64,000 bases of DNA, from the IMG/VR virus record IMGVR_UViG_3300017971_000186. The stretch is one strand, 5' to 3'. The notes under the pieces are model-generated. The model had not been told where the DNA came from and did no database searches. It saw only the letters and a list, made by a program, of their open reading frames with translations. This DNA comes from a virus (lineage: Duplodnaviria > Heunggongvirae > Uroviricota > Caudoviricetes). Position numbers and translations under genes: made by a program. Positions 33,292-34,128 of this stretch are shown in pieces (the stretch's first letter is position 1; each line of letters starts with the position of its first letter).

Positions 33292-34128
33292 TCATTTATT
33301 TGAAGGATTATATAAATCAATATATAATCCATTTATTGATATCTGTTCAAATGAAGGATCCTCTATACCACCAAATTCATTTGCTTTTACTATATCTTCC
33401 TCAATCATTAAATCACTAAGGATATTTCCCATAGCATTTACTATTTGATGTTGTTTTGTTATACCTCCTATTTGATACTCTGAAGGAAGATCTTTATGAG
33501 CAAGTTCCAATATCTTATCAGCAAATTTACTTTTCATCTGGATATTCAGATAAATAGTTCCAATATTTTCATTGTTCATAGTATTATTTCTCTTATTTTC
33601 ATTGTTCATAGTATTATTTCTCCTATTTTCATTGTTCATAGTATTATTTCTCCGTTGAACCATATCTAATTTATCTCTTACTTCCGTAAGTATTTCTCCA
33701 AGCCAGTTCAAACCTTTCCACGTAGCTCTACTTTTTGCCAAAGGATCATTCTCACTAAGTCCAATACCCCATAACCGGTCATGAGGACTAGCTTCAACTA
33801 GTGTTGTTCCTTTTGTGGCCAATAATAATTTCTTAAGATCCTCATTCTGGGTATACTTAGCCATGCTTCCGTCATAAACAATCTTTTTAGCGTATTTTTT
33901 CCATACATCCTCATTAAAACCTTCTACTTTTCTTCCATAACGCTTTTGATCAGAAGGATCCACTGCACTCATTATCATCTGATATCTTTCAGCATCATTA
34001 AACAATAAAGCTTTCATAGCCATCATGTACTGTTCAGCACAGTTATATTGAATACCTTCTATAACAAAAGGAGATGGGTGCCACTGTGAAAATGGGCCAC
34101 TCCAGAAATATGTAAATTTTTCAGACAT
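33292..34128 (-). CDS. NADAR (YbiA/DUF1768) domain protein with C-terminal repeat-containing extension
   Basis: 'FYFWSGPFSQW...IEGIQYNCAEQYMMAMKA...RYGRK...W...M....KYTQNEDLKKLLLATKGTTLVEASPHDRLWGIGL' matches the NADAR signature. Confidence 0.8.
   Translation of the reverse strand: MSEKFTYFWSGPFSQWHPSPFVIEGIQYNCAEQYMMAMKALLFNDAERYQMIMSAVDPSDQKRYGRKVEGFNEDVWKKYAKKIVYDGSMAKYTQNEDLKKLLLATKGTTLVEASPHDRLWGIGLSENDPLAKSRATWKGLNWLGEILTEVRDKLDMVQRRNNTMNNENRRNNTMNNENKRNNTMNNENIGTIYLNIQMKSKFADKILELAHKDLPSEYQIGGITKQHQIVNAMGNILSDLMIEEDIVKANEFGGIEDPSFEQISINGLYIDLYNPSNK
33568..33657. repeat. Three copies of a 30-bp tandem repeat inside the NADAR gene. They encode 'NNTMNNEN[RK]R' decapeptide repeats.
   Basis: Near-identical 30-mers 'attgttcatagtattatttctc[tc]tattttc' repeated three times. 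Confidence 0.85.

Follow-up and report, generated by a model that had tools for sequence, protein, structure and literature searches.

A glutamate-type NADAR protein with a repeat-encoded spacer and a rare C-terminal module in a huge phage: a candidate eraser of host-installed ADP-ribose

The locus considered here raises the question of what a huge phage gains from a predicted ADP-ribose hydrolase of the NADAR superfamily, and whether the gene next to it has any part in the answer. It lies in a 64,000-nucleotide stretch of viral DNA (IMG/VR record IMGVR_UViG_3300017971_000186, Caudoviricetes), hereafter the window, in which a NADAR gene at positions 33292-34128 of the minus strand is followed by a gene for an MVP-like protein. 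The initial annotation, made from the letters alone, had proposed a NADAR enzyme with a possible anti-defense function, and had attached weight both to the adjacent MVP gene and to a repeat-bearing C-terminal extension. Domain identity, an intact active site, fold, fusion architecture and phage context are direct results of the present analysis. The reading favored here, to which we give a probability of roughly 0.55, is that the gene encodes an orphan NADAR of the glutamate type, predicted to be active, which would serve the phage as a counter-defense eraser of ADP-ribose installed by the host.

A single minus-strand open reading frame (ORF) fills 33292-34128 exactly; it starts with ATG, preceded by an AAAGGA motif resembling a Shine-Dalgarno sequence. 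The coding sequence, its catalytic domain and the functional residues, the latter numbered also as in the Phytophthora enzyme PnNADAR (structure 8BAU), are as follows.

33292-34128, minus strand: complete coding sequence of the NADAR protein, 278 amino acids (NADAR domain, repeat-encoded linker and C-terminal module), from the ORF list and the sequence.
33667-34098, minus strand: NADAR catalytic domain, residues 11-154, from Pfam PF08719, TIGR02464, the AlphaFold2 model and Foldseek.
34033-34035, minus strand: codon GAA for E32, equivalent to PnNADAR E43, which positions the distal ribose.
34012-34014, minus strand: codon AAA for K39, equivalent to PnNADAR K50 and E. coli C7 DarG1 K95; diphosphate binding, essential.
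33793-33795, minus strand: codon GAA for E112 in VEASPHD, equivalent to the catalytic PnNADAR E125 and SCO5665 E167; defines the glutamate type.
Within the same domain: D117, equivalent to PnNADAR D130, and W120, equivalent to PnNADAR W133.

That the domain is a clear NADAR, as first proposed, was fully borne out. The Pfam NADAR model (PF08719, DUF1768) matches with E=1.5e-51 and 175.3 bits against a cut-off of 35.1, over model positions 11-162 of 163; the NCBIfam model TIGR02464 (riboflavin biosynthesis intermediates N-glycosidase) scores 159.4 bits against a cut-off of 73.7, and phrog_1017 matches with E=4e-50. Two other models of the superfamily stay below their cut-offs, namely NF053876 of NCBIfam (DS32_2, NADAR family anti-phage protein; 42.4 bits, cut-off 240) and PF08010, the T4 gp30.3 family (21.4 bits, cut-off 36). 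Both motifs quoted in the initial annotation are present, the second, VEASPHDRLWGIGL, exactly as given, whereas the first reads FTYFWSGPFSQW and not FYFW.

Functional residues were transferred from PnNADAR through the phmmer alignment to 8BAU, with a chain numbering offset of 2; the complex of 8BAU with ADP-ribose and the mutagenesis of Schuller et al. are their source, the role of E43 being taken from PMC11543638. An alignment check of the catalytic residues had been suggested at the outset, and S14, E32, K39, E112, D117 and W120 all proved to be in place, S14 being the conserved serine of the NADAR substrate channel. The corresponding channel residues of SCO5665 are S69, E87 and K94, of which the latter two are E43 and K50 in PnNADAR. 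In 28 close homologs S14, E32, K39, E112 and D117 are invariant and W120 nearly so, and S14, E32 and K39 remain invariant in an 8-sequence reference alignment that includes Bas61, ukendt, YbiA and T4 gp30.3. The superfamily has been split by the residue at the E125 position, which is Glu in the NADAR and YbiA families, Asp in the DarG1 antitoxins and His in the T4-type phage NADARs. Here E112 aligns with the Glu of 8BAU, YbiA, Bas61 and ukendt, while T4 gp30.3 has His. The solved DarG1 NADAR of G. lovleyi is absent from both the sequence matches and the Foldseek PDB matches of the protein. Given the Glu at the E125 position, the failure to pass the T4 gp30.3 model and the lack of detectable similarity to the solved DarG1, the protein is, as judged by its sequence, a glutamate-type, stand-alone NADAR with an intact catalytic set.

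The predicted fold agrees with this assignment. In the full-length AlphaFold2 model, built on 28 homologs, the confidence score (predicted local distance difference test, pLDDT) is about 85-98 across the NADAR domain (residues 1-160), with strands at residues 5-8, 21-23 and 26-28 followed by a helical core; the domain is thus modeled as a YbiA-like alpha-helical core with small flanking beta hairpins. A Foldseek search of the PDB returned only two significant matches, 8BAU (E=3e-9, template modeling (TM) score 0.73) and E. coli YbiA 2B3W (E=7e-8, TM score 0.76), with TM scores normalized to the target. By phmmer against solved structures, 8BAU is the best match (E=1e-16) and YbiA 2B3W follows with E=1.5e-7.

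The closest relatives of the protein are stand-alone NADARs of phages and metagenomes: NADAR is the only Pfam domain in 119 of 120 close homologs, and no RibA or RibD domain occurs among the relatives listed. About 14 of the 119 closest carry N- or C-terminal additions that are unrelated to one another, for example a zinc ribbon in P0026 and differing tails in P0015/P0008 and P0090/P0105, a pattern which suggests that NADAR is a catalytic core with interchangeable adaptors. The loci of four close homologs (L017, L019, L021 and L022) have no neighbor in common with the window; an apparently shared arrangement in L017, consisting of a 529-amino-acid AAA protein and the NADAR, was dropped for want of tblastn support. 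As a separate observation, the Branchiostoma proteins P0002 and P0003 have two tandem NADAR domains, are 53% identical to the phage NADAR and lie closer to it than all cultured-phage homologs but two, which hints at transfer of NADARs between viruses and animals.

Among phage NADARs, the one most instructive for comparison is that of Bas61 (bas61_0107), a member of the group shown to counter DarTG1, which is 35% identical over the whole domain (E=1e-29). The single annotated NADAR of Bas61 was assumed to be the AdfN-Bas60 protein, AdfN standing for anti-DarT factor NADAR, as the paper describing the latter states that Bas60-62 share it. Like the window protein, it is an orphan phage NADAR without an adjacent toxin; both carry the catalytic Glu in a VEASP.D motif and a common Ser/Glu/Lys core, and both pass TIGR02464, as does the ukendt phage NADAR. 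They differ in that the 124-residue extension of repeat plus module is present only in the window protein, whereas two insertions in the N-terminal half are found only in Bas61, and at 35% identity function may have diverged. The comparison bears on what had been proposed as grounds for abandoning an anti-defense role: the catalytic residues are intact, and the closest homologs are not purely metabolic YbiA enzymes, the Bas61-type signature being shared.

Other known systems are less close. The stand-alone NADAR family (PnNADAR 8BAU, SCO5665, and proteins from Amphimedon and Branchiostoma) provides the best solved-structure match, but its members are cellular proteins, whereas the window protein belongs to a phage; PnNADAR in addition has an N-terminal extension and an internal insertion flanking the active site, neither of which is seen here. 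E. coli YbiA has the same fold, the catalytic Glu and a match to the same NCBIfam model, but is a weaker sequence match (32% identity in the alignment), is devoid of the WGIGL...W.G.NWLG segment, and has its gene in a chromosomal operon under LexA control, together with dinG, rhlE and ybiB. DarG1 (BC4488-type) and T4 gp30.3 (AdfN-T4, PF08010) belong to the same superfamily and perform the same hydrolysis of guanine-linked ADP-ribose, gp30.3 being an orphan phage copy too; the catalytic position is occupied by Asp in DarG1, His in gp30.3 and Glu in the window protein. DarG1 further differs by an N-terminal beta1-beta2-alpha1 DNA-binding extension and an adjacent darT1 gene, whereas the window protein has neither, only 10 residues preceding its core.

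Past the NADAR domain the protein continues for 124 residues, which can be divided as follows.

33562-33666, minus strand: linker, residues 155-189; Asn-rich, with 15 Asn in 36 residues (155-190).
33564-33653, no strand assigned: tandem DNA repeat of 3 x 30 base pairs (bp), in frame, encoding (R/K)RNNTMNNEN three times; found by Tandem Repeats Finder (TRF).
33295-33561, minus strand: C-terminal module, residues 190-278; acidic, with a net charge of -6 and a conserved N[ED]FGG..EP.F.

The repeat-bearing extension noted earlier is therefore real, although longer than the approximately 110 residues first estimated. The 30-bp repeat has a TRF score of 173 with 98% matches and 1 mismatch in total, and none of 100 shuffled sequences matched it (0/100). 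It is not a dispersed element, the unit being confined to the NADAR gene within the window. In the AlphaFold2 model, one long helix at residues 142-212 spans the Asn-rich repeat and enters the last 89 residues. The module itself is rare. When 1.84 billion representative proteins were searched exhaustively with HMMER, only two homologs emerged, P0121 (90 amino acids, E=4e-13) and P0122 (81 amino acids, E=1e-12), at 41-45% identity; a third match, to a cadherin-repeat protein, was spurious. In both, similarity begins exactly where the repeat ends and takes in N[ED]FGG..EP.F, and both are small stand-alone ORFs on contigs of less than 1 kilobase (kb), with no NADAR upstream and no MVP. Because the homologs of the module stand alone, and because similarity to them starts at the end of the repeat, the protein is best read as a three-part fusion in which a spacer formed by the repeat joins the NADAR to the small, rare module. 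A word-index search with the module gave nothing, and the 3-sequence alignment of the module found no further copies in viral, genome and metagenome contig collections. Modeled alone by AlphaFold2 with 3 sequences, the module reached a mean pLDDT of 55.7, too poor for a fold search, and in the full-length model, where its pLDDT is 43-64, it has no PDB match. Neither the NADAR nor the module has a paralog elsewhere in the window. This module is the sole unusual feature of the NADAR; as one of many add-ons on close relatives, the spacer and module together suggest that phages retarget one core by swapping adaptors.

The phage context is equally clear. The window has a G+C content of about 32% and encodes a family A DNA polymerase, a DnaB-like helicase, a primase zinc finger, an SNF2 helicase, a sigma factor and an endonuclease VII-like protein, all on the same strand as the NADAR gene, in addition to glycosyltransferases and a DNA methylase. 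From about 23.3 to about 59.5 kb, all ORFs of at least 100 amino acids are on the NADAR strand, except two short ones nested in longer minus-strand genes. An identical NADAR protein has been recorded from a 469,617-bp contig, which also encodes an identical MVP-like protein, and from further contigs, and the source is a huge phage of roughly 470 kb; near-identical DNA was not found among GenBank phages. No ADP-ribosyltransferase (ART) domain was detected among 47 window proteins scanned against Pfam, and since no such partner was found in the window, the enzyme can be described as an orphan, antitoxin-like one. Finding a NADAR here is unsurprising, given that about 48% of medium and jumbo phages have been reported to carry one.

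Hydrolysis of guanine-linked ADP-ribose, on DNA as well as RNA, is common to all four NADAR families; the glutamate-type NADAR family and the YbiA family hydrolyze the cytosine-linked form too. Every NADAR tested reverses the guanine adduct, the product of DarT1, and none reverses the thymine adduct, the product of DarT2. For this reason, the experiment originally suggested, rescue of DarT2 toxicity or plaquing on DarTG+ hosts, names the wrong toxin, and DarT1 or a pierisin/ScARP-type enzyme would be the fitting one. In phages, T4 gp30.3, AdfN-Bas32 and AdfN-Bas60 counter DarTG1 defense (Johannesman et al. 2025, PMC11825919); the latter two, which fall outside the T4 group, neutralize DarT1 and restore plaquing on DarTG1 hosts, and most non-T4 phage NADARs cluster with bacterial NADARs that are neither YbiA nor DarG1 (PMC11825919).

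By homology only, we infer for the window NADAR a counter-defense role and, with it, a substrate. The enzyme would cut the N-glycosidic bond between the distal ribose of ADP-ribose and the nucleobase, with K39, D117 and W120 expected to hold the diphosphate, E32 to position the ribose and E112 to act in catalysis, by analogy with the Phytophthora enzyme. Its gene sits among replication and host-takeover genes in a long stretch that all read in one direction, and early expression alongside the replication genes would be expected. During infection, it would most likely strip ADP-ribose off the phage's own DNA, and possibly RNA, the presumed targets being guanine adducts and perhaps, for a glutamate-type enzyme, cytosine adducts as well, put on by a host defense based on a DarT1-like or pierisin/ScARP-like ADP-ribosyltransferase. 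Removal of the adducts would restore replication, as it does for the AdfN proteins of T4, Bas32 and Bas60. The Asn-rich repeat helix would act as a spacer bearing the rare acidic 89-residue module, and the latter may serve as an adaptor bringing the enzyme to a partner. If the role is as proposed, the protein is a huge-phage addition to the recently recognized class of orphan antitoxin-like NADARs acting as erasers of defense-installed ADP-ribose on phage DNA, and extends that class toward glutamate-type enzymes able to remove cytosine adducts too. The idea of an anti-defense NADAR is a reasonable one, in line with recent experiments, and gains from the 35% identity and the glutamate-type signature shared with Bas61.

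Several points weigh against this reading. E. coli YbiA and T4 gp30.3 hydrolyze guanine-linked ADP-ribose in vitro, yet do not rescue cells from DarT1, and specificity in vivo can therefore not be read from sequence. Iyer et al. have argued that most phage NADARs target small signals derived from ADP-ribose rather than DNA adducts. The protein passes TIGR02464, a model named for N-glycosidases of riboflavin intermediates; this match carries little weight, as the Bas61 NADAR passes it too and the model cannot tell a metabolic role from one in conflict. Finally, the adaptor role is a guess, because neither a fold match nor an annotated relative could be detected for the C-terminal module.

The argument of Iyer et al. 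leads to the alternative that survives best, though we consider it doubtful: the NADAR may destroy small immune messengers or toxins derived from ADP-ribose, such as cyclic ADP-ribose isomers and TIR, sirtuin or ART signals, by cleaving an N-glycosidic ribose linkage, and so silence host signaling with no repair of DNA. Their survey found that NAD and ADP-ribose genes cluster, co-occur and are common in large phages, and related huge-phage regions compared here hold genes for Macro, ADP-ribosylglycohydrolase (ARH), Nudix, SLOG/YpsA, DUF4326 and NAD synthase proteins. Moreover, a PADLOC NADAR model forms part of the candidate defense system PDC-M42C, which means that phages and host defenses alike make use of the domain. 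Against this, cleavage of such signals is so far not known for any NADAR, all those assayed act on base-linked ADP-ribose in DNA and RNA, and three phage NADARs counter DarTG1 directly.

The erasure of host-installed ADP-ribose thus remains the preferred reading, and it leaves the second part of the question, namely whether the neighboring genes matter. The two that flank the NADAR gene are these.

34150-34347, minus strand: upstream neighbor, a 65-amino-acid zinc-ribbon protein (ORF list; phrog_2834, E=4e-13; weak zinc-ribbon Pfam matches).
30776-33217, minus strand: downstream neighbor, an MVP-like protein of 813 amino acids (Pfam MVP_shoulder, E=1.4e-23; Vault_3, E=3e-11).

The stop codon of the zinc-ribbon gene is 21 bp from the NADAR start, and the two genes are probably co-transcribed. 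The zinc-ribbon protein has two paralogs on the plus strand of the window, at about 5883-6026 and 6540-6644, with 35-43% identity; the zinc ribbon at the N-terminus of P0026, the close NADAR homolog from a 512-kb contig, is unrelated to it. Just upstream of the zinc-ribbon/NADAR pair lie tandem paralogs on the minus strand (34366-34935 and 34966-35625), 73% identical to each other, with hydrophobic N-termini resembling signal or lipoprotein peptides and a weak match to phrog_24725 as their sole family match. On the other side, the MVP-like gene starts 74 bp past the NADAR stop codon, on the same strand and with a good Shine-Dalgarno sequence, and its MVP domains are confirmed, so that the reported position of the NADAR directly upstream of an MVP gene holds. 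No terminator-like site was found between the two, and it is plausible that they belong to the same operon.

The weight attached to this adjacency finds no backing in other genomes. Homologs of the MVP-like protein, at 37-47% identity, were collected from 13 huge-phage loci (9-10 distinct phages) drawn from GenBank huge phages and IMG/VR (L002/L006, L003 and L007-L016), and tblastn was run against these loci with the NADAR, its C-terminal module and every neighbor as queries; the only sources of such homologs were uncultured huge phages, with sizes of 462-735 kb in GenBank, and IMG/VR contigs no longer than 429 kb. In none of the 13 loci does a NADAR lie less than 8 kb from MVP, and a conserved NADAR-MVP pair was rejected on this ground; nor does any have a homolog of the module within that distance. 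The adjacency is specific to this phage and has no comparative support as a sign of joint function. No description of phage MVP homologs was found in the literature searched, and the sole paper in which the terms are mentioned together is one on Borgs. The only window neighbor that recurs near another MVP gene is DUF5662: the window copy (30324-30776, minus strand, E=6e-36) begins on the final base of the stop codon of the MVP gene, and a copy 41% identical to it is located about 5 kb downstream of the MVP gene in the 735-kb phage LR756501 (L003, 15124-15528).

What the MVP loci do contain is other genes of NAD and ADP-ribose chemistry. In LR756500 (L006), a Macro-domain protein is encoded 1.2 kb from the MVP gene and two genes downstream of it (11662-12441); of 259 amino acids and barely above the Pfam cut-off, it has a C-terminal extension of about 130 residues, so that its layout of hydrolase plus tail resembles that of the window NADAR, and BLAST found no counterpart of this gene near MVP in the other loci. 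An ARH (E=1e-65) is encoded 3 kb from MVP in L011 and an NAD synthase 1 kb from MVP in L016, and Nudix, SLOG/YpsA and DUF4326 genes are present in other MVP loci. An ADP-ribose hydrolase is thus found within about 3.5 kb of MVP in 3 of 10 distinct loci, each time with a different fold (NADAR in the window, Macro in L006 and ARH in L011).

It is against these data that a functional tie between the NADAR and the MVP-like protein, for example one in which the C-terminal module anchors the enzyme to a vault-like shell or holds it inside, has to be judged, and we regard it as improbable. The short intergenic distance on one strand without a terminator, a unique module that has no other explanation and the recurrence of hydrolases of differing folds near MVP all speak for it; yet neither the NADAR nor the module accompanies MVP in the 13 related loci, the two homologs of the module stand alone on contigs without MVP, and proximity may be a matter of chance, because NAD and ADP-ribose genes are common and clustered in large phages. 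The eukaryotic vault carries the ADP-ribosyltransferase vPARP by means of a C-terminal MVP-interaction domain. By extension, the module might dock the NADAR onto, or load it into, a vault-like shell of the phage MVP homolog, and huge-phage MVP genes might more broadly belong to an NAD/ADP-ribose conflict set, a speculation to which we attach very little probability; were it true, the docking of NADAR to a vault would be a viral counterpart of the vPARP-bearing eukaryotic vault.

About as improbable is the proposal that the NADAR is the eraser half of a writer/eraser pair internal to the phage, reversing or limiting what the phage's own ADP-ribosyltransferase does to nucleic acids of the host or the phage. 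The T4 NADAR gene 30.3 is situated about 3 kb from the ADP-ribosyltransferase gene alt, and large myoviruses often encode ARTs as well as NADARs and sometimes package them together; however, no ART domain was found among the 47 window proteins scanned, and the T4 NADAR has been shown to act against the DarT1 of the host. Slightly less likely still, and the weakest of the four, is a role in metabolic damage control, as an N-glycosidase of the E. coli YbiA or plant COG3236 kind that the phage would carry as an auxiliary metabolic gene, acting on reactive riboflavin-pathway intermediates. This reading can point to a TIGR02464 score of 159 bits against the cut-off of 73.7, to the many phage homologs annotated as YbiA-like or GTP cyclohydrolase II and to the catalytic glutamate common to YbiA, but has against it that the scan of 47 window proteins (64 kb of roughly 470 kb) turned up neither RibA or RibD nor any other product of a riboflavin gene, that the closest relatives are stand-alone phage or metagenomic proteins and not RibA/RibD fusions, that YbiA is a more distant match than the Phytophthora NADAR, and that TIGR02464 is undiscriminating, being passed by the Bas61 NADAR as well.

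Other features of the window deserve mention in their own right. The 529-amino-acid AAA+ ATPase encoded at 36722-38311 on the minus strand matches PADLOC IetA models (E=3e-24) and phrog_8638 (E=9e-82) and resembles a component of a defense system. The family A DNA polymerase (42143-45931, minus strand, 1262 amino acids) is split by a LAGLIDADG domain at residues 812-877, which suggests an intein or an inserted homing endonuclease. Finally, genes converge at about 22710-23328, where the plus-strand genes stop at 22710 and the minus-strand ones run from 23328; the GC skew flips its sign and the cumulative skew has its maximum near 21-22 kb.

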